DNA of 44,719 nt from Candidatus Eiseniibacteriota bacterium (GCA_031370785.1 JANMQY010000007.1:1-44719), one strand, 5' to 3'. Shown: positions 23,006-37,513, counted from the first letter of the stretch. A program made the numbers and translations. Notes: a model not told the origin generated them from the letters alone.

Positions 23006-24294
23006 GCCACCGCCTGCAACACGAGCTGGAAGCGCTGTACGGACTCGAGCGACGCAGGGACAAGCTCGGGCTGGACGGCACGCGCGCGCTGCTCGGCGCG
23101 CTCGGGGCCCCGGAGCGCCGGTTCCGCTCGGTGCACGTCGCCGGCACCAACGGCAAGGGGTCGACCTGCTCGCTGATCGAGCGCGCGTTGCGCGAGGCCG
23201 GCCACCGCACCGGGCTGTTCACCTCCCCTCACCTGGTGGATTTCCGGGAACGCATCCGGGTCTCAGGGCGCTGGGCCGACGAAGAGGTACTCGCGCAGCG
23301 GCTCGATCACATCGAGCGATTGCCCGAGGGGAAAGGACGCACGTTCTTCGAAGTGGCGACCGCGCTCGGCTTCGACTGGTTCGCCGCCCAGGGCGTGGAG
23401 TGGGCGGTGGTTGAAGTGGGGCTCGGCGGACGGCTCGACACCACCAACGTGATCGAGCCCGAGGTGTGCGTGATCACGTCGATCGGTCTCGACCATACCG
23501 AAATCCTCGGGGAGTCGATCGAGGAGATCGCCGCCGAGAAGGCGGGCATCGTGAAGCCTGGCGTGCCGGTCGTGATCGCCCCCGACCTGGACCCGCGCGC
23601 GCGGGAGGTCGTGGTGCGCGTGGCGAAGGAACGTGGCGCGCCGCTGGTGCACGCAGGGCCGCTTGAGAGCGCGCCGGAGCACGTGCACTCGGCCTGGGTC
23701 CGCGTCCTCGGAACGCGCTGGGGTGAGATCGAGTTCGAGCTCAGCCAGCGGCACGGGCGCTTCCAGCTGCCCAACGTCGCGACCGCGCTTGCCACGCTCG
23801 AGGTGCTGGCCGGGCGCGGGGTGCGCATTCCGAGCGATGCGATCGCGCGCGGGTTCGCGCGCGCGCGATGGCCGGGGCGCTTCGAGCAGGCGCCCCACGA
23901 GAAGCGCCTGTGGTGGGACGGCGCGCACAATCCGCATGGCATGGCCGCGCTGGAAAATGCGTGGCGCCGCAGTGCGCTGAGCGCGCCGGGCGCGATCGTG
24001 CTCGCGCTCTCGCGCGACAAGGACGTTGCCGCGATGCTCGAATCGCTGGCCCGCATCGGTCCCCGCTCGAGGATCTTCGCCACCCGTACGCGCAGCGAGC
24101 GTGCGCTGGACCCGGCGCGCATCGTCGACCACGCCGGTTCGCTCCGCATCGGCACCGCGCCCGACGTGGCCTCGGCATGTCGCGCCGCGCTCGCCGAGAC
24201 CGCGCCGGAAGGACTGGTGCTGCTCACCGGCTCGCTGTTCGCGGTGGGCGAAGCGATGGAGACGTTCGGGGGCGCGCCGGGAGAGTGGTTGTGA
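23002..24294 (+). CDS. folC: Folylpolyglutamate/dihydrofolate synthase
   Basis: HVAGTNGKGS, FTSPHL, EVGLGGRLDTTN, WPGRFE, DGAHNP, TGSLF. Confidence 0.94.
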
Positions 24295-27200
24295 CCCGCC
24301 GCCTCCTCGCGCTGCTCGCCACCGTCGCGCTCGCGCTCTCGACTGCGGCGCTTGCCGAGGAGCCGCCTCCTCCTCCGCTCAACATCGCCGCGGACAACGT
24401 GACCGGAAGCCACGACGAGGCCGGCGACGTCGTGCTGCTCAACGGCCACGTGCGCATCACCCGCGGGCGCACCGTGCTCACCGCGGCTTCGGGAAGCTAC
24501 GCGCGCGCCGAGGGCAGGCTCGATCTGCATGGCGACGTGAAGATGGTCGACAGCACCACGACGCTGACCTGCGACGATGCGACCTACAGCGAGAAGACCG
24601 ACCTGCTCCAGGTGAGCGGCAACGTCACGATCGTGGACCGCGACGGAACGCTGCACGCGCCGGCCGGGACCTACGATCGCAAAACCGGCCGGGTCGACCT
24701 GACCGGCGGCGTCGACGGCACCGATCGCGACCAGAAGATGACCTCCGAGAGCGCCACCTACGACCGCGATTCGATGCTGGTGCACGCTCGCGGCAACGTG
24801 AAGGGCATGGACGAGAAGAACAAGATCGAGCTGAACGCGCAGGCGATCGACTACAACCGCCGCACCCGCGAGGCGATCGCGACCGGCGATCCGGTGCTCA
24901 AGTCGCGCGACGAGAAGGATCGCGTGGCCGAGCTGCGTGCGATCACGCTCAAGGTCAACACCGAGACCCGCATGGCCGAAGCGATCGACTCGGTGACCGT
25001 GGCGCGCGACACGCTGCGCGGGCGCGCCGACTACGCGCTGTTCGACGACCGAGCCGGGCGCGGCTGGCTGTACGGCCGGCCGCGGGTCTGGGACGACCAG
25101 ACCGAGGTGAGCGGGGACACGCTCGAACTGTGGAGCGAGAAGCGGGTGCTGAACCGGGTGCGGGTGCGGGGTCACGCGCTCATGAACTACAAGGGCACGC
25201 GCCCGACCACGGTCGGGGAGAGCAGCGTGCTCAGCGGCGACATCGTGGACGTGTACTTCCGCAACGAGGAGATCGACAGCCTGGTCGCGGTGGGTTCGGC
25301 GCGCAACCTCTACGGCGGCCAGCCGCGCGCCGGCAAGGCTTCGGAGACCAATCTCGCGATCGGCGACACCATCACGGTGTTCTTCCGCGACCGCAAGGTG
25401 GAGCTGGCGCGCGTTCAGGGCAAGGCGAGCGGCGAGTATCACCCGAGCGTGACGCTCGGCGACACCACCGCGGCGAAGAAAGAGGTCGTGAACTACGACG
25501 CCACCCGCATCGAGTTCATGGTGCCGAAGAACCGCATCGTGCTGGAAGACGGCGCACACCTGACCTACTCCGATCTGGAGCTGCGCGCGCGCAAGGTGGC
25601 GTTCGACGTGGACGAGCAGACGCTGGTTGCCGAGGGCAAGCCGCAGCTGTTCGACAAGGGCGATCAGGTCACCGGGCACCTCATGACCTACGACCTGCGC
25701 TCGCGGGTGGGCACCATCTACAAGGCCGAGACCGCGTACGAGAAGGGGCTCTACCACGGCGAGCGTATCCGCAAGGTCGGGGACAACGTGCTCGACGTGC
25801 TCAACGGCTCCTACAGCACCTGCGATCTGCCCGAGCCGCACTATCACTTCTCGTCGCACTACATGAAGATCTACCTGAAGGACAAGCTGGTCGCCAGGCC
25901 GGTGGTGTTCTACCTCCGGCACGTGCCGCTGCTGGCGCTGCCGTTCTACGTGTTCCCGATCAAGCCCGGCCGTCACTCCGGCTTCCTGTTCCCCCAGTTC
26001 GAATTCGGCTTCAACAATCGCGCGGGACAGTTCCTGCGCAACGCCGGCTACTACTGGGCGCCGAACGACTACATGGACCTGACCGGTTCCGGCGACTACT
26101 ACCAGGCCGAGCCGTCGTGGGTCATGCGCGCCGAAGGCAACTACCGGCTCCTGTACCGGCTGAACGGGGACTTCGCGGGCACGTTCGCGAAGAACGATGC
26201 GACCCGCCGCGAGGACTACGACTTCAACCTGAATCACTCGCAGGACCTGTCGCCGCGCACGCGCCTGGTCGCGCGCGGGCAGTTCGTGTCGAGCAAGGAC
26301 TACAACTCGAGCAACCTGTACGGACGACCGCTGTCTCAGCGTCTCAATCGATTCCTGGTTTCGAGTTTCGCGGTCTCGCATGCGGCAGACTGGGCCAGCT
26401 TCAACGCGGTCGTCGATCGGCGCCAGGACCTGGACGCCGACGGCTCGATCTCCGATCCAGACGGCGAGGGTCCGCTGCACGGGCCGCCGCTCGGCGTGTT
26501 CGCGTCGCTCGCGAATCTCACCGAGCACACGCCGGACCTGCGCATCTCGTTCCCGACCCGAACCCTGGGCGCGTTTCCGGGGATCAAGGGCACGGGCTTC
26601 GGGAAGGCGCTTCAGACGATGTACTTCGCGTTCGACACTCACTTCCTCTCGCAGCGCGAGCAGCGCGCGTTCGTCGCGGGCTATCGCGGCTTCCTGCGCG
26701 ACACCGTGCCCGACTCGACCACCGTGCTCGGACAGCAGGTCACCACCCGGCGCGCGCTGGCCAGCAACATTTCGCTGTCCGACTCCCGCCGCCTGTTCGG
26801 CTGGCTCAACCTGTCGCCGCGCCTCAACTCGAACGCGGTGGTGTTCGACTACGACGAGCAGGGCCACAAGGTCGTGCCGGTCGCCACCTGGTCGGGGTCG
26901 ATCACATCGAGCGCAACGTTCTACGGCTCCTTCCAGCCGCATATCGGATCGCTGGTCGGAATCCGCCACGTGCTGTTCCCCAGCGTTTCCTTCAACTACA
27001 GCCCGCAGTTCGAGAGCCTGACCTTCCGCGACTCGCTCGGCCGGCTGCGCAACCGGTTCACCGGATTCGGCGGCATCGGCGTGTCCGGCTTCCGCAACTC
27101 CTCGATGAGCTTCAGCCTCGACCAGCGCCTGCAGGCGAAGCTCAAGCACGGAGACAAGGTGCAGCGCCTGGACAACCTGCTCTCGCTCTCGCTGGCCAGC

Positions 27201-27794
27201 TCCTACGATTTCCTGTGGCGGGAAAAGGGCCTGCGTCATCCGCTCTCGCCGATCGGAGCCAGCCTGTTCCTGCAGCCGCCCGGACTGCTCAACGCCAGCA
27301 TCGGCGGCACCATCGATCCCTACGAGGGCCGGCCGCTGCGTGCGCTGAGCGGAAGCACCGGCTTCAGCCTGGCGAGCGGAGGTGCGAGGCCGCAGGTCGC
27401 CGAGCTGCCCGTGGATCAGACGCAGCGCAAGTACTACGAAGAGGTCGCGCCCGAATTCCGCGAATCGTGGTCGCTCTCGCTGGCCTACTCGTACGCGGGC
27501 GGATACGAGTCGCCGAGCTGGTCGAGCCGTCAGACTGCGAACGCGGTGGTGCGATACGACGTGACCCCCAACTGGTCGGTGGACTACTCGGCCTCGTACG
27601 ACATCACGCTGCGCAACGTGCTCACCCAGCGCTTCGGGCTCAGCCGCACGCTGCACTGCTGGATCGCGACCTTCACTCGCACGTTCTCCCCTGGCGGAGA
27701 AGCCGAGTACTACTTCCGTCTCGGGATCAAGGATCAGCGCGAGGTGTACATGGAGCGCGGCACGCGCGTCGGCAGCATCGGCGGGATCAACTGA
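24291..27794 (+). CDS. lptD: LptD-like LPS assembly outer-membrane protein with an extended OstA/LptA-like N-terminal region
   Basis: GTG start in a GTGA overlap; signal peptide; repeated jellyroll-type motifs; YSTCDLPEPHYHF, RHSGFLFP, GYYWAPNDY, RTLHCW. About 1167 aa. Confidence 0.8.
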   Translation: MTRRLLALLATVALALSTAALAEEPPPPPLNIAADNVTGSHDEAGDVVLLNGHVRITRGRTVLTAASGSYARAEGRLDLHGDVKMVDSTTTLTCDDATYSEKTDLLQVSGNVTIVDRDGTLHAPAGTYDRKTGRVDLTGGVDGTDRDQKMTSESATYDRDSMLVHARGNVKGMDEKNKIELNAQAIDYNRRTREAIATGDPVLKSRDEKDRVAELRAITLKVNTETRMAEAIDSVTVARDTLRGRADYALFDDRAGRGWLYGRPRVWDDQTEVSGDTLELWSEKRVLNRVRVRGHALMNYKGTRPTTVGESSVLSGDIVDVYFRNEEIDSLVAVGSARNLYGGQPRAGKASETNLAIGDTITVFFRDRKVELARVQGKASGEYHPSVTLGDTTAAKKEVVNYDATRIEFMVPKNRIVLEDGAHLTYSDLELRARKVAFDVDEQTLVAEGKPQLFDKGDQVTGHLMTYDLRSRVGTIYKAETAYEKGLYHGERIRKVGDNVLDVLNGSYSTCDLPEPHYHFSSHYMKIYLKDKLVARPVVFYLRHVPLLALPFYVFPIKPGRHSGFLFPQFEFGFNNRAGQFLRNAGYYWAPNDYMDLTGSGDYYQAEPSWVMRAEGNYRLLYRLNGDFAGTFAKNDATRREDYDFNLNHSQDLSPRTRLVARGQFVSSKDYNSSNLYGRPLSQRLNRFLVSSFAVSHAADWASFNAVVDRRQDLDADGSISDPDGEGPLHGPPLGVFASLANLTEHTPDLRISFPTRTLGAFPGIKGTGFGKALQTMYFAFDTHFLSQREQRAFVAGYRGFLRDTVPDSTTVLGQQVTTRRALASNISLSDSRRLFGWLNLSPRLNSNAVVFDYDEQGHKVVPVATWSGSITSSATFYGSFQPHIGSLVGIRHVLFPSVSFNYSPQFESLTFRDSLGRLRNRFTGFGGIGVSGFRNSSMSFSLDQRLQAKLKHGDKVQRLDNLLSLSLASSYDFLWREKGLRHPLSPIGASLFLQPPGLLNASIGGTIDPYEGRPLRALSGSTGFSLASGGARPQVAELPVDQTQRKYYEEVAPEFRESWSLSLAYSYAGGYESPSWSSRQTANAVVRYDVTPNWSVDYSASYDITLRNVLTQRFGLSRTLHCWIATFTRTFSPGGEAEYYFRLGIKDQREVYMERGTRVGSIGGIN

Positions 27795-27796
27795 CC

Positions 27797-29059
27797 ATGT
27801 CGCGCTGGCACCTGTCGTGCGATGCCTGCGACGAGACCGCCTGGATCGGCCGCGAGGGAAACCGCATCCAGGCGTGGTGCGAAGCGTGCCAGTCCTCGCC
27901 AGTCGTCACGGCCGGCTCGGATTCGCCACCGTGCCCGAAGTGCAGCGCGCCGCTCGCCGTCGATGGCCCGCGCTTTCCCGAGCTGTGGGGCGAGCTGCAG
28001 AATCTCTCGGCAGTGCTCGCGGCGTGGACCGGGGACGTGGCGCCGCTGGCCGCGATCCTTCCCGAGCGCCCGCGCTTCCTCACCGATCGAACGCCGCCCG
28101 AACCGCGGCCCGACGACCCGTCTGCGGTGCGCGAGGCGCTCGCGCTGGTCGCATCCGGAGCGTTCGCGCTCGCGCGCGCCTCGCTCGCCGCGATCCTCGC
28201 CGCGGAGGCGGGCGGGGCGCATGTCTGGCGTGCGCTCGCGATCGCTGCCGAGCGCACGGGCACGCCGGCCCTGTCCGAGGTCGCATGCGGCCGCGCCCTC
28301 GCTCTGCTGCGACCCGGCGATGGGAGTGAGCGCATGGCGCATGCCCTTCGTCTCGAGCGTGGCGCGCTGCGCGCCTATCGCGGCGATCGCTCGGGAGCGC
28401 GCGAGGATTTCGCCGCGGCGGGTGATGAGCGCGAAGCGCGCTGGAATCGCGCCGCGCTGGCCGTGCTCGATTCGGTCGCGACCGGCGATGGAGTTCCAGC
28501 CGCGCACGTGATCGCCGGCGCCCGCGCCGAAGCCGGAGAGACTTCACCGTACTGGAGCGAACCCACCGTCGGTCGGCTGCTGTTCGCGCTGCTGGTCGAG
28601 CGCGCGATGAAGCAGAAAACCGGCGCCTCGGAAATTGCCGCCCGATCCGGCGGGTCGGGCAGGGGCGATGAGTCCGGGAGTGCGGACGCGCAGACCCTGC
28701 GCGCGGCCGAAGGCCTGCTCGAGTTCGATACCTTCTGGGACCGTGCGCTGGTGCTGCACGGCTACGCCGCGCTCGCCCTGGAAGCCGACGTGCGGCGCAC
28801 CGCCAGCGCGCTTGCGCGTCAGGTGGTCGAACAGATCGCGACCGAGCCGTACCTGCGTGGCCCGGCGGCGAGCGCCATCAGCGATGCCGTCGGGCGCGCG
28901 CGTGATGCGATCGCCGCGTCGGACCCCACCCGTGCGCTCTCCGCGCTCGCGCCGCTCCTCGAGCGCGCGGATCTGCGGCACTTCCGCATTCCGTGCGCAC
29001 ACTGCGGGCGCGGGTCGGTCGGAGTGGACGAGGTGGCGGAGGACGAGGGCGCGGAGTAG
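27797..29059 (+). CDS. Hypothetical protein with four CxxC motifs and a TPR-like helical core
   Basis: ATG 3 nt after the lptD stop; CDAC, CEAC, CPKC near the N-terminus and CAHC near the C-terminus. Confidence 0.65.
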   Translation: MSRWHLSCDACDETAWIGREGNRIQAWCEACQSSPVVTAGSDSPPCPKCSAPLAVDGPRFPELWGELQNLSAVLAAWTGDVAPLAAILPERPRFLTDRTPPEPRPDDPSAVREALALVASGAFALARASLAAILAAEAGGAHVWRALAIAAERTGTPALSEVACGRALALLRPGDGSERMAHALRLERGALRAYRGDRSGAREDFAAAGDEREARWNRAALAVLDSVATGDGVPAAHVIAGARAEAGETSPYWSEPTVGRLLFALLVERAMKQKTGASEIAARSGGSGRGDESGSADAQTLRAAEGLLEFDTFWDRALVLHGYAALALEADVRRTASALARQVVEQIATEPYLRGPAASAISDAVGRARDAIAASDPTRALSALAPLLERADLRHFRIPCAHCGRGSVGVDEVAEDEGAE

Positions 29060-29140: not shown

Positions 29141-31468
29141 ATGTCCTTCGTTCCTCTCAAATCCTTAGAAGCCAGCGCGCACCCTGCCGCCACGGACGCT
29201 GGCGGCAAGGAGTCCTTGCAGCTCGGCATCACTGGCATGCACTGCGCCGCGTGCGTGGGCCGGGTCGAGCAGGCGCTCGCCTCGGTCGAGGGGGTGTCCT
29301 CGGCCGCCGTCAATCTCGCGACCGAGCGCGCGCAGGTTCGGCTCTCACGGCCGATCGATTTGCAGGCGCTGATCGGGGCGGTGCGCAGGGCCGGCTACGA
29401 TGCGCACGCCATGGACGCGGCCGGGCACGATCACGCCGCACATCTGCGCGCACTCGATGCGGCGAGCCTGCGCCGCCGGTTCGTCATCGCCGCCGCGCTC
29501 ACCGCGCCGGTGGTGGTGCTGGGCAACTTCGGCATGCTGGCTCCGCTCAACCGCATTCCGATGCTGTTGCAGAACCTGATCCAGCTAGTGCTCACCACAC
29601 CGGTCCAGCTCTGGGCGGGCTGGTCGTTCGTGATCGGCGCGTGGCGCAGCGTGCGCAGGCGCGTCGCCGACATGGACCTGCTGGTGGGCCTCGGCACGCT
29701 GACCGCGTTCACCTATTCGACCGTCGCCACGCTCGCGCCGCAGTGGATTCCCGGAGCCGGCGGGGTGGCGCCGGTCTACTTCGACACTGCCGCGGTGATC
29801 ATCACCCTGATCCTGCTCGGGCGATTGCTCGAGGCCCGCGCCAGGGCGGGCACCTCGAGTGCGATGAAGCGCCTGCTCGATCTCAGCCCGCGCACCGCAC
29901 GACGCGTGGTCGACGGGGTTACCGAAGACGCGCCTCTCGACCGGATCGTGCCCGGCGACATTCTGCTGGTGCGCCCCGGCGAGAAGGTGCCGGTGGACGG
30001 GGTCGTGATCGACGGGAGCTCGAGCATTGATGCCTCGATGCTGACCGGCGAGCCGATCCCGGTCGAAGTCGGTCCCGGCGCGACCGTGACTGGCGCGACC
30101 GTGAATCAGTCCGGCGCGTTCCACATGCGCGCCGAGCGCGTCGGCGCCGACTCGATGCTGATGCAGATCGTGCGCCTGGTGGAGCAGGCGCAGAGCAGCA
30201 AGGCCGAGGTCGCGCGCCTTGCGGATCGGGTGGTCGCGGTATTCGTGCCGGTCGTGATCACGATCGCGCTCATCGCGTTCGTGCTGTGGCTCGTGTTCGG
30301 TCCCGAGCCGCGCTTTGCGCACGCGCTGCTGACGCTGGTGGCAGTGCTGATCATCGCCTGCCCGTGCGCGCTGGGGCTCGCGACTCCGACCGCGCTCATC
30401 GTCGGCACCGGACGTGGCGCCGAGCTCGGCGTGCTGATCCGGGGCGCCGACGTGCTGGAGGCCGCCGAGGGCGCGCAGGTCATCGTGTTCGACAAGACCG
30501 GCACCCTGACACGCGGGCGGCCCGAGCTGACCGACGTCATCCCCGTTCCCGGGACGAGCGAAGAGCGCGTGCTCGCGCTCGCGGCCGCGCTCGAGCGTCC
30601 GAGTGAGCATCCGCTCGCCGCTGGCGTGCTGCGCGGCGCCAAAGCCCGTGCCGTGCCGCGGCTCGAGCCCGAGGATTTCGCGGCGGTGCCCGGACGCGGC
30701 GTGATCGGCGTCGTCGAAGGCCGCGCGCTGGTGCTGGGCACCGCCTCGCTCCTCGCCGACCAGGGCGCGGATGTCGCGCCGCTCGCCGCGGACGCCGCGC
30801 GACTCGAGGCCGAGGGCAGGACTGTGCTGTTCCTTGCCGAGAACGGCGCCCTGCTCGGGCTGCTCGCGCTGGCCGACACGCTCAAGCCCGACGCCGCGAA
30901 CGTGGTGCGCGCTCTGGAAGCGCGCGGCATGGAAGTGTGGATGATCACCGGCGACAACGCCCGCACCGCCCATGCGGTCGCGCGTGCCGCCGGAATCGCG
31001 CCTTCGCGGGTCATGGCCGAGGTGCTGCCCGCTGAAAAGAGCGCGAAGGTGCGCGCACTGCAGGCTGACGGCAGGAAAGTCGTCATGGTCGGAGATGGGA
31101 TCAACGATGCGCCCGCCCTGGCCCAGGCCGATGTCGGCATCGCGATGGGGGGCGGCACCGACATCGCGATGGAGGCGAGCGGGATCACGCTGGTACGCGG
31201 CGATCTCGCCGGCGTCGAGATCGCGCTGCGTCTCGCGCGGCGCACCATGCAGGTGATCCGGCAGAATCTGTTCTGGGCGTTCATCTACAACGCGCTCGGA
31301 ATCCCGATCGCGGCGGGACTGCTCTACGTGTTCCTGCGCCCGGGAGGTCCGATCGGGCCGGTGTTCGGCTGGGAGGGCACGCTGCACCCGATGCTCGCCT
31401 CGGTCGCGATGGCGCTCTCGAGCGTGAGCGTGATGACTTCGTCGCTCAGGCTGAGGGGATTCCGGTGA
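29141..31468 (+). CDS. copA: Cu(I)-translocating P1B-type ATPase
   Basis: GMHCAAC metal-binding domain, [26 protein letters not shown] and MALSS ligands. Confidence 0.93.
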
Positions 31469-31478
31469 GCGGCGCGCC

Positions 31479-31925
31479 TCAGGGTTTCTTCGCGAGCGCC
31501 ACGCCGACGGTCCACAGGTAGCCGTCGGGGTCGCCGACCCACACCTCACGCCAGCCGTGCGGCTTGTCGGTCGGCGGCAGGAGCACCGGAGCGCCGTGCG
31601 CGTGGGCGCGCGTCTCGACCTGATCCGGATCGAGCCCGAACAGCCTCATCTCGGCCCCCACACCGCGCGGCCCGGCGCCCGCGAGCGCCGCGCTCCACGG
31701 ATGGTGCTCGTAGGTGTGATCGGTGTGCAGCATCATGCGCTGGCCGTGCAGCTTGAGCGCAGCAAAGTCGGCATCGGAATACTCGACGATCGCGAGCAGC
31801 ACGTCGCGATAGAACGCGACCGACTTCGGCATGTCGCGCACCAGCAGGTTCACCGAGAAGGTTGGGAGCCAGCGGCCGTACTCGTCGGCTGGCATCCACG
31901 GCTCGCCAGTGCGGTGCTTGGCCAT
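31479..31925 (-). CDS. VOC/glyoxalase-bleomycin resistance family protein
   Basis: NLLVRDMPKSVAFYRDVL...PTDKPHGWRE...DPDGYLW; ATG at 31925. Confidence 0.85.
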   Translation of the reverse strand: MAKHRTGEPWMPADEYGRWLPTFSVNLLVRDMPKSVAFYRDVLLAIVEYSDADFAALKLHGQRMMLHTDHTYEHHPWSAALAGAGPRGVGAEMRLFGLDPDQVETRAHAHGAPVLLPPTDKPHGWREVWVGDPDGYLWTVGVALAKKP

Positions 31926-31927
31926 CC

Positions 31928-32746
31928 CTACCCCAGCCCCCACTGCTCGAGCTCGTCCTCGTCCAGGCCGAGCAGGTGCCCGACCTCGTGCTGCACCGTG
32001 ATGCGGATCTCCTTCGCCAGCTCTTCGTGATCGCTGCACACCCGGAGCAGGTTGCGGCGGAACAGGTAGATCACGCCGGGCGCACCGGGCACATCGCCGG
32101 TGCTGCGCCCCATCAGGTGCCGGCCCACGAACAACCCGAGGATGTCGGGGGAGAGTGGCGGCTGCTCGGCGATCAGCACGTCGCGGCGCGGCAGCGGCTC
32201 GACCATCACTGGCAGGTCATCGAGATGGCTGCGGACCTTCTCCGGCAGCTCGCGCACGCACTCCTCGACGATCGAATCGAACTCCTCGTCGCTCACTTCG
32301 AGCGGCTCAGGGAAAGCCTCGTCATCGATCTCGTGCGCCATCTCGGAGTGCTCGCTGGCCTTCCCGGTGTCCCCGAGATGCTCGTAGATGCGCCCCAGCA
32401 GGTCGTGCGCCTCCCCCAGGTCCTCGTGAACGGCGAGTGCGCGCTCCGCGTCGTCGCGGGCGGCTTCGAGCTGTGCCAGCTCGTAGTGCGCGACCGCGCG
32501 CAGGTGGAAGAACAGCGCCGGGTCGGCCGAGCGCTCGGCGCCTTTGAGCACTTCGAGCGCGTGCTGGGCTTCACCCTCGTCGAGTGAGACGGCCGCATCC
32601 ACGATGCGCAGATCGGGATGGCCGGGGCGCTTGTTCTCGAGCGCGTTCAACTCCAGGCGGGCCCGTTCGAGCTGGCCCTCGTCGAGAAGGTCCCACACCC
32701 GATTCACCTGCTCCCACTCGACTTCGTTCAACAACTCGTACGCCAT
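31928..32746 (-). CDS. TPR-like region plus minimal zincin-like metallopeptidase domain
   Basis: ATG at 32746 (MAYELL); helical repeats, then ILGLF, IYLFRRN, ITVQHEVGHLLGLDE (HExxH). Confidence 0.82.
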   Translation of the reverse strand: MAYELLNEVEWEQVNRVWDLLDEGQLERARLELNALENKRPGHPDLRIVDAAVSLDEGEAQHALEVLKGAERSADPALFFHLRAVAHYELAQLEAARDDAERALAVHEDLGEAHDLLGRIYEHLGDTGKASEHSEMAHEIDDEAFPEPLEVSDEEFDSIVEECVRELPEKVRSHLDDLPVMVEPLPRRDVLIAEQPPLSPDILGLFVGRHLMGRSTGDVPGAPGVIYLFRRNLLRVCSDHEELAKEIRITVQHEVGHLLGLDEDELEQWGLG

Positions 32747-32908
32747 GCCTTGCCCTCCGGAATGTGGCCGGCAGGTTACCGCCCCGCGCCGGCCCGCACC
32801 AGCCGAGCGCGCCGGCCTCGGTGCGCGCGCGAGGCGGACCGGGCGCAGCCCAGGTGCTAGAGTTGAGCGCGGGGGTTCGAACGCTTTCGCTGTGAGGAGG
32901 CCGCATCC

Positions 32909-33205
32909 ATGACGCAGACCCAGGCCGTGAAACATCTGCTCCGTGCCCATCGCAGGTCGCTGGCGCGTTCGCTCAAGCAGGCGTACCAGGAAGGCTTCGA
33001 AGCCGGGCTGCACCGCGCGCACGGCGCGGGACGGCGCGGGCGGACCATTCGCGCCGATGCAACCGTGGATGGGCTGATCCGGCTCATCCAGCGCCACTTC
33101 GGGCTCGATCGCTATGGCTTCGAAGTGCGGGTCGTGCACCAGGGTTCGGGCAGGCGCGTTCCCTCGCGCGACCTGCTTCGGAAGTACCGGATTCCGGACG
33201 CGTAA
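32909..33205 (+). CDS. Small basic hypothetical protein, possible beta-grasp-like C-terminal half
   Basis: GAGGAGG RBS; GC-type codon usage; TG-TAGAGT extended -10-like motif upstream. Confidence 0.7.
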   Translation: MTQTQAVKHLLRAHRRSLARSLKQAYQEGFEAGLHRAHGAGRRGRTIRADATVDGLIRLIQRHFGLDRYGFEVRVVHQGSGRRVPSRDLLRKYRIPDA

Positions 33206-33223
33206 AGCCGCGGACCGCCCGGC

Positions 33224-33253
33224 TTGACGCTGGCGGTTTCTTCCCCGTAAAAT
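33224..33253 (+). promoter_or_regulatory. Sigma70-type promoter for the selenoprotein gene
   Basis: TTGACG-N18-TAAAAT, 56 nt upstream of ATG 33310. Confidence 0.65.
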
Positions 33254-33309
33254 CTGCACCCGCTACGACGACCGGGCCGAGTCGCAGGAAAACATCGGAG
33301 ACGTTTCTC

Positions 33310-34719
33310 ATGAAGGTGCTGGCATCCCGTCTCGCGGTCGCAACGGCCGCAGCGCTTGCCGTGTGGGTGGTGCTCATCGGCGCCACCGTCCCCAGGCCCT
33401 CCCAGCTCGAACCCGACAAGCTGATCATCCTGTCCACGGTCGACGTGAAGGGCAAGGCCAGCCCCTGCGGCTGACACACGCCCAAAGGGGGCCTGGCCCG
33501 GCGGGCCAGTTTCGTGGACAGCATGAGGACGCAGTACAGCCAGATCCTGCTTCTGGATGATGGCGGATTCTTCCCCGAGGACGACGTTCACGAGCCGTTC
33601 GCAGGGTTCATGATGGACGCGATGACCCTGATCGGCACCGACGCGGTCGGCTGCGGAGATCGCGACCTGCGTTTCGGGATCTCGTACCTGCGTGCGCGCT
33701 CGGCACGCGCCAGGCTGCCGGTGCTCTCGGCAAACCTCGTCGACAAGGCGACCAGGCAGCCCGCGCTCAGCCCCTCGCTGATCAAGAAGGTGGGTACGGT
33801 CAAGGTCGGCATGTTCGGCTTGATCAGCGACAAGGCCGAGCTGGGCCCGTCGCGGGATTCGCTGCTGGTGCTCGATCCGACCGTCGTCGCCAAGCGCACC
33901 ATTGCCGACCTCAAGAAGCGCGGCGCCACCGTGATCGTGCTGCTCTCGCAACTCGGCAAGGTCGAGACCGAGGACCTGGCGAGTGCGGTGGATGGGCTCG
34001 ACGTGGTGATCGTCGGGCGCAACGTTCCGCTGGTGCAGAAGGGCCGCATGATCAAGGACGCGATCGCGGTCTACGGCGCCGACCAGGGCCAGTACTTCGG
34101 CCGCACTATCGTGACCCTGAATGCGGCACGCGTGGCGACCGCCAAGGAAAGCGACATGTTCCTGCTCACTCCAGAAGTGGGCGAGAAAGCCGAGGTCGCG
34201 GCGCTGGTCAAGGGGTTCGAGGACAAGTTCAACGAAGAGCAGAAGAAGCGCGAGAAGGAAGAACAGGTCAAGCACGCCCAGGCCACGAGCGGAAACGAGC
34301 CGGACCACTTCGTCGGCGGCGATGTCTGCGCGCGCTGCCATACCAGCGAGTACGCGCAGTGGCAGACCACCAAGCACGCGCTGGCGTGGAAGACCCTGGT
34401 GGATCAGCACAAGGACTCGACGCCCGAGTGCGTGGGTTGCCACGTCGTGGGCAACAGGCAGGCGGGTGGCTTCACCAACGGTACCGACACCCCGAAGCTG
34501 GTGAACGTGCAGTGCGAGAACTGCCACGGCATGGGCACCAATCACGAGGCGTTCGCGGCGAATCCTCCCAGGATCACCGAGAGCACCTGCATCCAGTGCC
34601 ACACCGCGACCACCAGCCCGACGTTCAGCTTCGCCATCTACGCGCCGCACGTGATGCACAAGTACGCGGGCGTGCCGCCTCCGATTCCCGCGCACGCGCC
34701 GACCATGGGCGGACACTGA
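33310..34719 (+). CDS. Probable selenoprotein: exported UshA-like (5'-nucleotidase-fold) domain with a CGU motif fused to a tetraheme cytochrome c domain; 469 aa, Sec at codon 55
   Basis: ATG 33310 after GGAG; signal/TM segment; DKLIILSTVDVKGKASPCG-TGA(33472-33474)-HTPKGGLARRASF is in frame with ORF 33514..34719; CARCH, CVGCH, CENCH, CIQCH. Confidence 0.85.
33470..33522 (+). promoter_or_regulatory. Bacterial SECIS-like stem-loop
   Basis: Apical stem CTGGCCC/GGGCCAG (33493-33509) with a G-initiated loop 25 nt after the TGA; lower pairings CACG/CGTG and GCTG/CAGC. Confidence 0.7.
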
Positions 34720-34745
34720 TCGGCGGCTTTGCGCTCGAGCAGATC

Positions 34746-34781
34746 GCGGGGCTCCTCGTTCGAGGGCCCCGCTCGCTTTTT
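34746..34781 (+). terminator. Intrinsic terminator after the selenoprotein gene
   Basis: GCGGGGC(T)CCTCG-TT-CGAGGGCCCCGC followed by a T5 run. Confidence 0.65.
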
Positions 34782-34804
34782 GAGCCGGCCTCTAGCCCAC
34801 TCGC

Positions 34805-34833
34805 TTGACCCTCGCTGCGGGCCCCCGTAATGT
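34805..34833 (+). promoter_or_regulatory. Sigma70-type promoter for the CBS/CGL operon
   Basis: TTGACC-N17-TAATGT. Confidence 0.6.
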
Positions 34834-34946
34834 CCGCGGCCGGCCCAAAGCACGCGGCCTCCCCCCGGGCTCAGGCCGGGAGCGCGGAGGCGCGCCGGCC
34901 GCCCACTTCCGGCCGGCCTGATTTCATTCATGAGGAGTGTTTCCCG

Positions 34947-36338
34947 GTGAGCTCGGTTCTCGATGGCGTGAAGTACTTCGAGTCGATCATCGATACCGTC
35001 GGGAATACGCCGCTGGTGCGCATCCGCGCGCTGGCGCGCGGCTCTCCCGCTCCGGTGCTGGCCAAGCTCGAGTACTTCAATCCCGGCGGTAGCGTCAAGG
35101 ATCGGATCGGACTCGCGATGGTCGAGACGGCCGAGCGCGAGGGAACGCTGCGCCCGGGCGGCACGATCGTCGAGTGCACCTCCGGCAACACCGGGGTCGG
35201 GCTGGCGATGGTCGCGGCGGTGCGGGGCTACCGCGCGGTGTTCTGCATGCCCGACAAGGTCTCGAGCGAAAAGGTGAACCTGCTCAAGGCCTACGGCGCC
35301 GAGGTGCTGCTCAGTCCGACCGCGGTCGAGCCCGACTCGCCCGAGTCGTACTACTCGGTGGCGAAGCGGGTCACGGCGGAGCGGCCCGGCGCGGTGCTGA
35401 TGAACCAGTATCACAATCCGTCGAATCCGCTCGCGCACTACCGGACGACCGGACCCGAGCTGTGGGAGCAGACCGCCGGGAAGATCACGCACTTCGTGAC
35501 CGGCATGGGCACCGGCGGCACCATTTCCGGCACCGGACGCTACCTCAAGGAGAAGAACGCAAAAGTGCAGGTGATCGGCGCGGATCCGGTCGGTTCGATC
35601 CTCAAGGCCTATCACGAGACCGGTCAGATCACCGGGGCCCACACCTACAAGATCGAGGGCGTGGGGGAGGACTTCATTCCCTCCGCGACCGACTTCAAGG
35701 TCATCGATCGGGTGATCGCGTGCAACGACCGCGACGGCCTGAACACCGCGCGACGCCTGGCGCGCGAGGACGCAATCTTCACCGGCGGCTCGGGCGGCAT
35801 GGCCGCGTGGGTCGCGCTCGAGGTGGCGAAGACGCTGACCCCGAAGGACCTGGTGGTGGTGCTGCTCCCCGACACCGGCGAGCGCTACCTGTCCAAGGTG
35901 CACAACGACGCGTGGATGCGTGACAACCATCTGCTCGACCCGGCGGTGACGCGCGTGCTCGAGGTGGTGGCGGGCAAGGGACGGGCGCTGCGCGGGCTGC
36001 TCAGGGTCGAGGCGCACGAGCCGCTGCGCCGCGCGCTGGCGCTGGTGCAGCAGCACGACGTCACGCAGATTCCGGTGTTCCGCGGGGAACAGGTGGTGGG
36101 CACGGTCTACGACAACGAGATCCTCAAGTGCGTGCTCGAGAACTCCTCGACGCTCGACAAGCCGGTCGAGACGCTGATGGGCGATCCGCTTCCGATCGTT
36201 GGCAGTGACGAGTCGGTGGACCACGTCACCCAGCTGCTCGCGTCGCGCAATCCCGCCGTGCTGGTGCGCGAGAACGGCAAGGTGACCGGGATCCTGACGC
36301 GCTTCGACATGCTGCAGTTCATCGCGGGAGGCGAGTGA
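34947..36338 (+). CDS. Cystathionine beta-synthase (PLP domain plus C-terminal CBS pair)
   Basis: GTG 34947 after GAGGAG; NPGGSVKDRIG, TSGNTG, GMGTGGT, YKIEGVG, PDTGERYLSK, CBS domains. Confidence 0.9.
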   Translation: MSSVLDGVKYFESIIDTVGNTPLVRIRALARGSPAPVLAKLEYFNPGGSVKDRIGLAMVETAEREGTLRPGGTIVECTSGNTGVGLAMVAAVRGYRAVFCMPDKVSSEKVNLLKAYGAEVLLSPTAVEPDSPESYYSVAKRVTAERPGAVLMNQYHNPSNPLAHYRTTGPELWEQTAGKITHFVTGMGTGGTISGTGRYLKEKNAKVQVIGADPVGSILKAYHETGQITGAHTYKIEGVGEDFIPSATDFKVIDRVIACNDRDGLNTARRLAREDAIFTGGSGGMAAWVALEVAKTLTPKDLVVVLLPDTGERYLSKVHNDAWMRDNHLLDPAVTRVLEVVAGKGRALRGLLRVEAHEPLRRALALVQQHDVTQIPVFRGEQVVGTVYDNEILKCVLENSSTLDKPVETLMGDPLPIVGSDESVDHVTQLLASRNPAVLVRENGKVTGILTRFDMLQFIAGGE

Positions 36339-37513
36339 TGGGAGGGGAATCCGCACTCACCCCGAAGTCGGGATTCAGCACCAGGGCGATCCACGCCGGT
36401 CAGAATCCGGACCCGACGACCGGGTCGGTGACCGTGCCGATCTATCAGACCTCGACCTACGCGCAGGAGGCGCTCGGGGTCAACAAGGGCTTCGAGTACG
36501 CGCGCACGCACAACGCGACGCGCTTCGCGCTCGAGGGCAATCTCGCGGCGCTCGAGGGCGGCAAGCATGGCTTCTGCTTCGCCTCTGGGCTCGCGGCCAC
36601 CAACACCCTGCTTCAGACTCTGTCGTCGGGGGACCACGTGGTCGCGGGCGACAACCTGTACGGAGGCACCTACCGCCTGTTCGAAAAGGTGCTGCGCCGA
36701 TTCGGGCTCGAGTTCAGCTTCGTGCCCGCTCACGACCTCGGGGCGATCGAGAAGGCGCTGCGAGCGAACACGCGCATGCTGTTCGTGGAGTCGCCGACCA
36801 ACCCGATGATGCAGCTCACCGACATCGCGGCGGCGAGCAGGCTGGCGGGAGCGCGCGGGGCTCTGACGGTGGTGGACAACACGTTCATGACCCCCTACCT
36901 CCAGCGCCCGCTCGAGCTGGGCGCGGATGTGGTGCTTCATTCGGTGACCAAGTACCTGAACGGGCACAGCGACATGGTGGGCGGGGCGCTGATCACCTCG
37001 AACGAAAAGCTCGCGGAATCGCTGCGCTACCTGCAGAACGCGGCGGGCGCGGTGCCCGGCCCGATGGATTGCTGGCTCGCGCTGCGCGGCACAAAGACCC
37101 TCGCGGTGCGCATGCAGCGCCATGAAGACAACGCGCGTGCGCTGGCGAGCTGGCTCGAGGGCCGGCCGGGCATCACCCGCGTGTTCTATCCCGGTCTTGC
37201 GAAGCATCCCCAGCACGCGCTGGCGAAGAAACAGGCGTGCGGCTTCGGCGGGATCATCTCATTCGTCGCCGGCGATGGGTCGCTCGAGTCCGGCCGGAGG
37301 ATCTTCGACCGTTTCCGCCTGTTCACCCGCGCCGAGAGCCTGGGCGGGGTCGAGAGCCTGGTGTGCCACCCGGCGTCGATGACCCACGCTTCGGTGCCGC
37401 GGGAAGACCGCCTGCGCATGGGCTTCGCCGATGGACTGCTGCGCCTCTCGATCGGGATCGAGGACGTCGAAGACCTGCGCGCCGACCTCGAACAGGCGCT
37501 GCAAGCCATTTGA
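36335..37513 (+). CDS. Cystathionine gamma-lyase/gamma-synthase family PLP enzyme
   Basis: PIYQTSTY, FASGLAA, YGGTYRL, ESPTNP, DNTF, HSVTKYLNGHSD, ESLGGVESL. Confidence 0.92.
   Translation: MMGGESALTPKSGFSTRAIHAGQNPDPTTGSVTVPIYQTSTYAQEALGVNKGFEYARTHNATRFALEGNLAALEGGKHGFCFASGLAATNTLLQTLSSGDHVVAGDNLYGGTYRLFEKVLRRFGLEFSFVPAHDLGAIEKALRANTRMLFVESPTNPMMQLTDIAAASRLAGARGALTVVDNTFMTPYLQRPLELGADVVLHSVTKYLNGHSDMVGGALITSNEKLAESLRYLQNAAGAVPGPMDCWLALRGTKTLAVRMQRHEDNARALASWLEGRPGITRVFYPGLAKHPQHALAKKQACGFGGIISFVAGDGSLESGRRIFDRFRLFTRAESLGGVESLVCHPASMTHASVPREDRLRMGFADGLLRLSIGIEDVEDLRADLEQALQAI

Follow-up and report, generated by a model that had tools for sequence, protein, structure and literature searches.

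A putative UshA-like selenoprotein with a cytochrome c554-like tetraheme domain from Candidatus Eiseniibacteriota

UshA-like selenoproteins have been catalogued in bacteria in several places. In the 2008 analysis of the Global Ocean Sampling selenoproteome, the family was listed as COG0737, UshA-like, with a CxU motif and 76 sequences (Zhang and Gladyshev, 2008; PMC2398784). A 2022 review names a "UshA-like protein" among the selenoproteins (PMC9312934), and a 2026 review gives the family under the accession NF041198 (PMC13188914); the table rows for the family in these papers, and one discussion passage, do not mention a heme domain. A gene that very probably encodes an exported selenoprotein of this family, with a UGA at codon 55 read as selenocysteine (Sec), lies in a stretch of DNA of 44,719 nucleotides (nt) assigned to Candidatus Eiseniibacteriota (GCA_031370785.1, JANMQY010000007.1:1-44719), here called the window. 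The window copy comes from a Candidatus Eisenbacteria-type genome, and its database entry is only a truncated open reading frame (ORF) of 398 amino acids (aa).

The encoded protein matches NCBIfam NF041198 (UshA_like_PCGU, UshA-like (seleno)protein) with 279.5 bits and an E-value of 4.9e-83, against a cut-off of 275. Two parts of this 519-position profile are matched in one frame of the window, namely positions 6-275 with 140.4 bits and positions 353-518 with 127 bits. The profile covers the N-terminal domain as well as the heme region, which means that the fusion to a heme domain is already part of the catalogued family. Like that family, the window protein has the P-C-G-U motif and both domains, and there is no essential difference between them. 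A first-pass annotation of the same DNA had called UshA-like proteins with a CxU or CxC motif a recognized selenoprotein family; this is confirmed, and the recognition extends further than was claimed, to the heme fusion itself. The selenoprotein call is correct, yet the family is already known and the protein is not new in kind.

Codon 55 and the hairpin downstream of it

The gene is a single frame of 469 codons plus a stop on the plus strand (33310-34719), interrupted by one in-frame TGA at codon 55 (33472-33474), which with Sec inserted stands in the context SPCG-U-HTPKGGLARR. The stop of the frame is itself a TGA (34717-34719). Under translation table 11, the gene appears in the ORF list as two pieces in one frame, 33310..33474 with 54 aa and 33514..34719 with 401 aa. 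The first-pass annotation had traced the frame back to the ATG at 33310 across a lone TGA in this context, and all of these elements are present in the sequence. It had further stated that the 54 upstream codons belong to the same protein and encode the first strand of a nucleotidase-like fold. These codons do align with the N-termini of full-length homologs, and the first beta-strand of the model (residues 37-43) is encoded upstream of the TGA.

Homologs were compared in three sets: 18 full-length database homologs, 37 natural full-length homologs, and a set of 119 homologs. Cys occupies codon 55 in 18/18 members of the first set, where P52-C53-G54-C55 is invariant, and C55 is invariant in 37/37 members of the second, as are P52, C53, and G54. 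In the largest set, 42 homologs span codon 55, all of them (42/42) with Cys, one of the two states that the first-pass annotation had named as support. The remaining 77/119 begin past residue 62, which is what gene callers yield when they restart after an in-frame TGA. The database record of the window gene likewise starts downstream of the TGA, so the expectation that automated annotation would truncate the gene is borne out by its own record and by most of its homologs. The NF041198 profile reads through the TGA at an E-value of 5.5e-41 in a six-frame search of the window.

The TGA is not an assembly error; an error at this codon had been named as one of the outcomes that would undo the reading. 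Contigs from four sequencing runs in three studies, one of which is a possible source of the window DNA, carry no variant at 33472-33474. In these four runs, the summed contig depth rises 5- to 40-fold over the stretch that holds the PCGU codons and the hairpin described below (33471-33521, with the peak at 33471-33504), a rise explained by the many relatives in which this stretch is nearly identical. Among the N-domain matches listed for the phylum sample of 201 genomes, most likewise contain exactly one TGA, and a Sec copy occurs in 57 of 77 named related loci.

A short hairpin (33493-33509) follows the UGA and is encoded within the codons of the conserved residues L-A-R-R-A-S (GLARRAS motif). 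Homologous stretches were gathered from the genome matches of the phylum, from 16 extra Cys-form regions, and from the 77 named loci. The full stem of 7/7 pairs, with a GGC or GGA loop, is present in 61/61 distinct Sec-form sequences. In contrast, it is present in 0/30 distinct Cys-form sequences, which form 2-6 pairs despite encoding the same or similar residues; a smaller first pass had given 26/26 and 0/12, respectively. All cells of the 61-sequence alignment pair (336/336, 100%). The third stem pair is C:G in 25 distinct rows and G:C in 23, and one further pair shifts from C:G to U:A, so that two pairs change on both sides. Shuffles that matched the observed pairing or covariation numbered 0/500, and sliding the register of the stem cuts pairing to 17-51%. 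This comparison shows the hairpin to be a selenocysteine insertion sequence (SECIS) that would aid decoding of UGA55. The signal arose solely from the comparison of homologs and not from the fold energy of 33460-33540.

The genome also encodes the machinery for Sec insertion, for which the first-pass annotation had advised a search. The genes selD (354.7 bits), selB (348.1 bits), and selA (542.2 bits) and a tRNA-Sec (69.1 bits) all score above their cut-offs, and ARAGORN reports a tRNA-SeC with anticodon tca. The tRNA-Sec gene (contig C73:99658-99751, minus strand) directly adjoins selD (C73:99889-100812, minus strand). An in-frame TGA is found once in selD, in an N-terminal ...ACAG-U-ASKL stretch that we take to be the known Sec/Cys position of SelD, and selD itself therefore probably encodes a selenoprotein.

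Several observations weigh against the reading of the gene as a decoded member of the family. The margin over the NF041198 cut-off is just 4.5 bits, and in the six-frame search each half singly falls below it. The 81-nt region 33460-33540, in GC-rich DNA, folds no better than shuffles (z -0.64), and no Rfam SECIS family was found in 33200-34900 at E<=10, where there were three chance-level matches only. The selB frame (C74:1-1404, minus strand, 516 aa) runs off the contig start, so that the SECIS-binding C-terminus is missing from the assembly. Finally, the lone RNA run holds only the contig of a relative, with 29 differences, and gives no proof of transcription.

Two other explanations of the TGA fare worse than Sec. 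If it were a nonsense mutation or an assembly error, the gene would be a pseudogene, or just the 401-aa ORF at 33514-34719 would be made, and a truncated product is indeed what gene callers report here and for most homologs. However, the TGA recurs together with its matched hairpin in 61 distinct sequences drawn from many genomes, no variant is seen in independent assemblies, and the shortened product would lack strand 1 as well as a signal peptide, which a c-type cytochrome requires, all of which makes this explanation exceedingly unlikely. Least credible of all is an alternative genetic code in which TGA is read as an ordinary residue such as Trp or Gly: the frame is open when the TGA is read through, but the gene's own stop is TGA, homologs carry Cys at the site and not Trp or Gly, the genome has a dedicated tRNA-Sec with selA, selB, and selD, and the hairpin is specific to TGA-bearing genes. 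Judged by comparative sequence evidence, the in-frame TGA is a genuine selenocysteine codon.

Domains of the encoded protein and flanking signals

An AlphaFold2 model was built from 120 sequences (mean predicted local distance difference test score, pLDDT, 86.8; predicted template modeling score, pTM, 0.71). According to this model, a degenerate alpha/beta domain of the 5'-nucleotidase type is followed by a long helix and then by a helical heme domain (Table 1). Foldseek matches the N-terminal domain to the 5'-nucleotidase fold at an E-value of about 1e-21, and the 5'-nucleotidase matches start at model residue 34 and stop at about 312-326. The nucleotide-binding C-terminal domain of these enzymes is absent; residues 330-455 match cytochrome c554 there instead. 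Profile alignments with solved 5'-nucleotidases reveal a series of motif replacements, in which D-V-H becomes D-V-K, GD becomes GG, GNHE becomes GDRD, and the two GH motifs become SQ and GR. Among the ligand and catalytic positions of motifs I-V, which presumably correspond to the metal ligands, the motif-I Asp (D45) alone is kept. The N-terminal domain has thus lost the motif-level residues of the two-metal site.

The same genome has a canonical tandem 5'-nucleotidase, a 1199-aa frame on contig C74 (about 29800-33400, plus strand) whose two units keep TTDLHG, GDCIQG, GNHEFN, and GHTH; this frame has no CxxCH and no CGC or CGU and so contrasts with the degenerate domain of the selenoprotein. 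In the window protein, the PCGU loop comes right after the retained D45, and its counterpart in the alignment with snake-venom 5'-nucleotidase is a Cys-x5-Cys loop (KCTGEDCYGG).

At the C-terminus, Pfam finds only PF13435 (Cytochrome_C554), which is also the sole Pfam match in the whole protein. The structural match of this region to cytochrome c554 (1bvb) has a Z score of 9.8 over 126 aligned residues at 30% identity, and phmmer gives an E-value of 3.3e-11. The four CxxCH motifs reported by the first-pass annotation are present in the frame downstream of the TGA. Outside these motifs, the only conserved His residues are H356, H412, and H450, which leaves three candidate distal ligands for four hemes. 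Cytochrome c554 has one five-coordinate heme, and the predicted ligand count fits one such heme here as well. Genes for cytochrome maturation of the Ccm type (CcmC/F-type and CcmE) are carried on contigs C133 and C82, in line with the check that had been proposed, and ResB (system II) was searched for in the genome and not found. Covalent heme attachment after export is predicted, with support from the Ccm-type genes, the signal-like N-terminus, and this negative search for ResB.

In many relatives, open frames of 800-1500 aa contain further matches, free of any TGA, to the C-terminal part of NF041198 (positions about 343-519); examples are G197:C42:5013-5528 and G033:C114:80992-81465. Evidently, the c554-like module also serves as a building block of other large proteins.

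The signals around the frame agree for the most part with what had been read before. The promoter TTGACG-N18-TAAAAT was found and is the sole promoter-like site in 32800-35000 (1 found against 0.1 expected from shuffles), and the GGAG ribosome-binding site is in place. The N-terminus forms a helix (residues 2-22) in the AlphaFold2 model at a pLDDT of about 60. We infer that the protein is exported, because c-type heme motifs and Ccm genes are present; the signal peptide or anchor is read from the sequence and the model. The proposed terminator is supported in part. The hairpin 3' of the stop folds well (-39.9 kcal/mol, z -2.3, with 3/200 shuffles equally good), but the consensus terminator scan made no call on it (34746-34772), because the T-run begins 4 nt past the stem.

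Table 1. Features of the selenoprotein gene and its flanks, in window coordinates.
Feature	Position	Strand	Basis
Sigma-70-like promoter, TTGACG-N18-TAAAAT	33224..33253	+	Consensus match only, 10/12 matches
Ribosome-binding site, GGAG	33297..33300	+	9 nt upstream of the ATG, read from sequence
Whole selenoprotein gene	33310..34719	+	UGA55 read as Sec; NF041198 279.5 bits, cut-off 275
Signal peptide or N-terminal anchor (predicted), residues 1-25	33310..33384	+	K2, R7, hydrophobic L8-A25, then IGA|T
Degenerate 5'-nucleotidase/UshA-type metallophosphoesterase domain, residues 34-290	33409..34179	+	VIA-align Z 32.9 (2z1a), 31.9 (1ush), 31.2 (2wdc)
Selenocysteine codon UGA, residue 55, motif P-C-G-U	33472..33474	+	Cys in 42/42 site-spanning homologs
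SECIS hairpin, CUGGCCC-GGC-GGGCCAG	33493..33509	+	Perfect 7-bp stem, starts 18 nt past the UGA
Long linker helix, residues 294-326	34189..34287	+	Model helix; UshA alignment extends to residue 326
Cytochrome c554-like tetraheme domain, residues 330-455	34297..34674	+	PF13435 57.9 bits, cut-off 20.8; 1bvb match
CxxCH motifs, four	34327-34341, 34429-34443, 34513-34527, 34588-34602	+	Invariant in 18-homolog alignment
Terminator-like hairpin and T-run	34746..34781	+	Hairpin 34746-34772, TTTTT 34777-34781

Proposed function and competing readings

A working mechanism can be outlined from these parts. UGA55 would be decoded as Sec via the coding-region SECIS at 33493-33509, and the mature protein consists of the degenerate 5'-nucleotidase scaffold, the long linker helix of the family, and the c554-like four-heme domain. 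The heme domain would occupy the position vacated by the nucleotide-binding domain and would so face the old active-site cleft. Within that former cleft, the Cys-Gly-Sec pair could cycle between a selenol/thiol and a selenenylsulfide state and exchange electrons with the heme chain. The outcome would be a periplasmic oxidoreductase whose substrate is a small sulfur or selenium species or the like. We give about an even chance to this reading, in which the protein is no phosphoesterase but a periplasmic oxidoreductase with a Cys-Gly-Sec redox centre coupled to hemes. The first-pass annotation had proposed such a coupling.

A narrower version holds that the Cys-Gly-Sec loop, which is positioned where the two metals are bound in 5'-nucleotidases, works directly with the hemes, either as a catalytic selenenylsulfide fed by them or as a selenolate serving as ligand or gate for the one heme without a conserved distal His. 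This is a speculative proposal with a small chance of being right. If it were true, the protein would represent a new class of periplasmic heme-selenol oxidoreductase, and, as a core enzyme, it would be nearly universal among Candidatus Eisenbacteria.

Three points count against a mechanism of this kind. The CGU loop (residues 51-60) is the least confident part of its domain, with a pLDDT of 58 in the model; the neighboring genes offer no functional hint; and the literature found on the family consisted of catalogue listings, with no functional study among them.

The strongest competitor keeps the selenoprotein and leaves its Cys-Gly-Sec loop unconnected to the hemes, with the heme domain as an independent electron carrier. 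The loop could then bind metals or metalloids, it could act as a covalent sulfur or selenium carrier on a flexible arm, like SoxY for SoxB, or it could form a selenenylsulfide with a regulatory or structural role, comparable to the disulfide loop found in eukaryotic 5'-nucleotidases. The modeled flexibility of the loop and its alignment with the snake-venom loop are in keeping with such roles, as are the close structural relationship to SoxB (Z 31.2) and the heavy-metal P-type ATPase gene that lies 1.8 kb upstream here and recurs in 32/77 related loci. On the other hand, homologs keep the two domains fused down to about 28-30% identity, and neither PCG(U/C) nor any of the four CxxCH motifs varies, which speaks for the two domains acting together. 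Moreover, Sec is usually found at a catalytic redox position. An unconnected loop is possible, though we consider it rather unlikely.

Far less probable is that the N-terminal domain has remained a UshA/SoxB-type hydrolase, either a nucleotidase or a thiosulfohydrolase, to which the hemes are an addition. In its favor are a strong match in fold (Z about 32) and weak profile matches to SoxB (E 8e-14) and UshA (E 1.3e-11), but the scores, at 50.8 bits against 550 for SoxB (TIGR04486) and 43.9 against 600 for UshA, are far below the cut-offs, the residues of the two-metal-binding motifs and the catalytic His are replaced, and the nucleotide-binding C-terminal domain is gone.

Distribution, gene neighborhood, and relation to described proteins

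The named relatives are nearly all metagenome-assembled genomes (MAGs) of Candidatus Eisenbacteria. In the phylum sample, a match at E<=1e-30 is found in 185/201 genomes, a tally that counts the unpublished genome G015, and there are 593 matches at the same threshold among 1.84 billion cluster representatives. The full two-domain architecture is retained in homologs down to the low identities given above. Among the 77 named loci, 39 have Sec copies only, 16 have a Sec copy and one Cys copy, 2 have a Sec copy and two Cys copies, and 9 have Cys copies only; the other 11 did not fit the motif pattern used for Sec/Cys scoring. The genome of the window has the Sec form only and no Cys-form paralog.

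In 18/77 related loci (L075-L086, L097, L099, L105, L111, L113, L118, L133, L140), the Sec-form gene shares its strand with one or two Cys-form paralogs. These paralogs are directly adjacent to the Sec form in several of these loci and about 4-8 kb away in others. The gene is also present, at 54-77% identity, in soil MAGs labeled Saccharimonadaceae, Udaeobacter, Methylomirabilota, Terriglobales, and Limnocylindria (L088, L104, L105, L106, L078). In two of these loci (L088 and L104), the flanking genes are likewise those of loci labeled Eisenbacteria, and the deviating labels may be binning or naming errors.

The neighborhood of the gene comprises the heavy-metal P-type ATPase, a glyoxalase-family gene, and an opposite-strand TPR/zincin gene, with PALP+CBS and Cys/Met-PLP genes following. 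Synteny with the selenoprotein gene extends to TPR+Zincin_1 (31928-33259, minus strand) in 52/77 related loci, to PALP+CBS (34830-36338, plus strand) in 49/77, and to Cys/Met-PLP (36335-37513, plus strand) in 46/77. The last two resemble a reverse transsulfuration pair. We do not regard the syntenic neighbors as partners, since they are enzymes of a cytoplasmic type and the selenoprotein gene comes with a promoter-like site and a hairpin of its own; the synteny may reflect functional linkage or simply a preserved order of genes. Elsewhere in the window, a 1677-aa frame (24026-29059, plus strand) has no Pfam match at E<=0.001 and overlaps the long frames 23307-27656 (minus strand) and 23868-27794 (plus strand).

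The value of these results is chiefly local, as a correction of annotation, and nothing in them is new in kind. As it stands, the database entry is a 398-aa "hypothetical/multiheme cytochrome" that is missing the signal peptide, the first strand, and the Sec, and a like truncation affects most homologs (77/119). The family is nevertheless large, and the contrast in the SECIS between Sec and Cys forms (61/61 versus 0/30), together with the loss of the metal site, makes it a well-defined target for biochemistry.

Apart from NF041198, four kinds of described proteins invite comparison. Another UshA-like selenoprotein family, NF049981 (UshA-like (seleno)protein family 2, CxxU), appears among the entries of the 2026 review (PMC13188914). 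Its motif is CxxU and that of the window protein CxU, and the window protein, which scores 20.3 bits where 140 are required, lies outside this second family. With UshA of E. coli (1ush; Z 31.9, 286 aligned residues, root-mean-square deviation, rmsd, 2.8) and the 5'-nucleotidase of Thermus thermophilus (2z1a; Z 32.9, 273 aligned, rmsd 2.5), the window protein shares the fold of the N-terminal domain and the linker helix. It differs from both in that the metal and catalytic motifs are replaced, a heme domain stands in for the nucleotide-binding domain, and Cys-Gly-Sec is added. The thiosulfohydrolase SoxB (2wdc) has the N-terminal fold as well, with Z 31.2 over 281 aligned residues. SoxB is a periplasmic enzyme of sulfur chemistry, and the window protein is likewise predicted to be periplasmic, but the di-manganese ligand motifs of SoxB are not retained in the window protein, and SoxB has neither the hemes nor the CxU motif found here. 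Finally, the first three heme motifs of cytochrome c554 from Nitrosomonas europaea (1bvb) align, with their surroundings, with the C-terminal domain. The window domain scores 38.6 bits against a cut-off of 400 for NF043010 (Cyt554_Nsmonas) and, in contrast to c554, forms the C-terminal module of a fusion.

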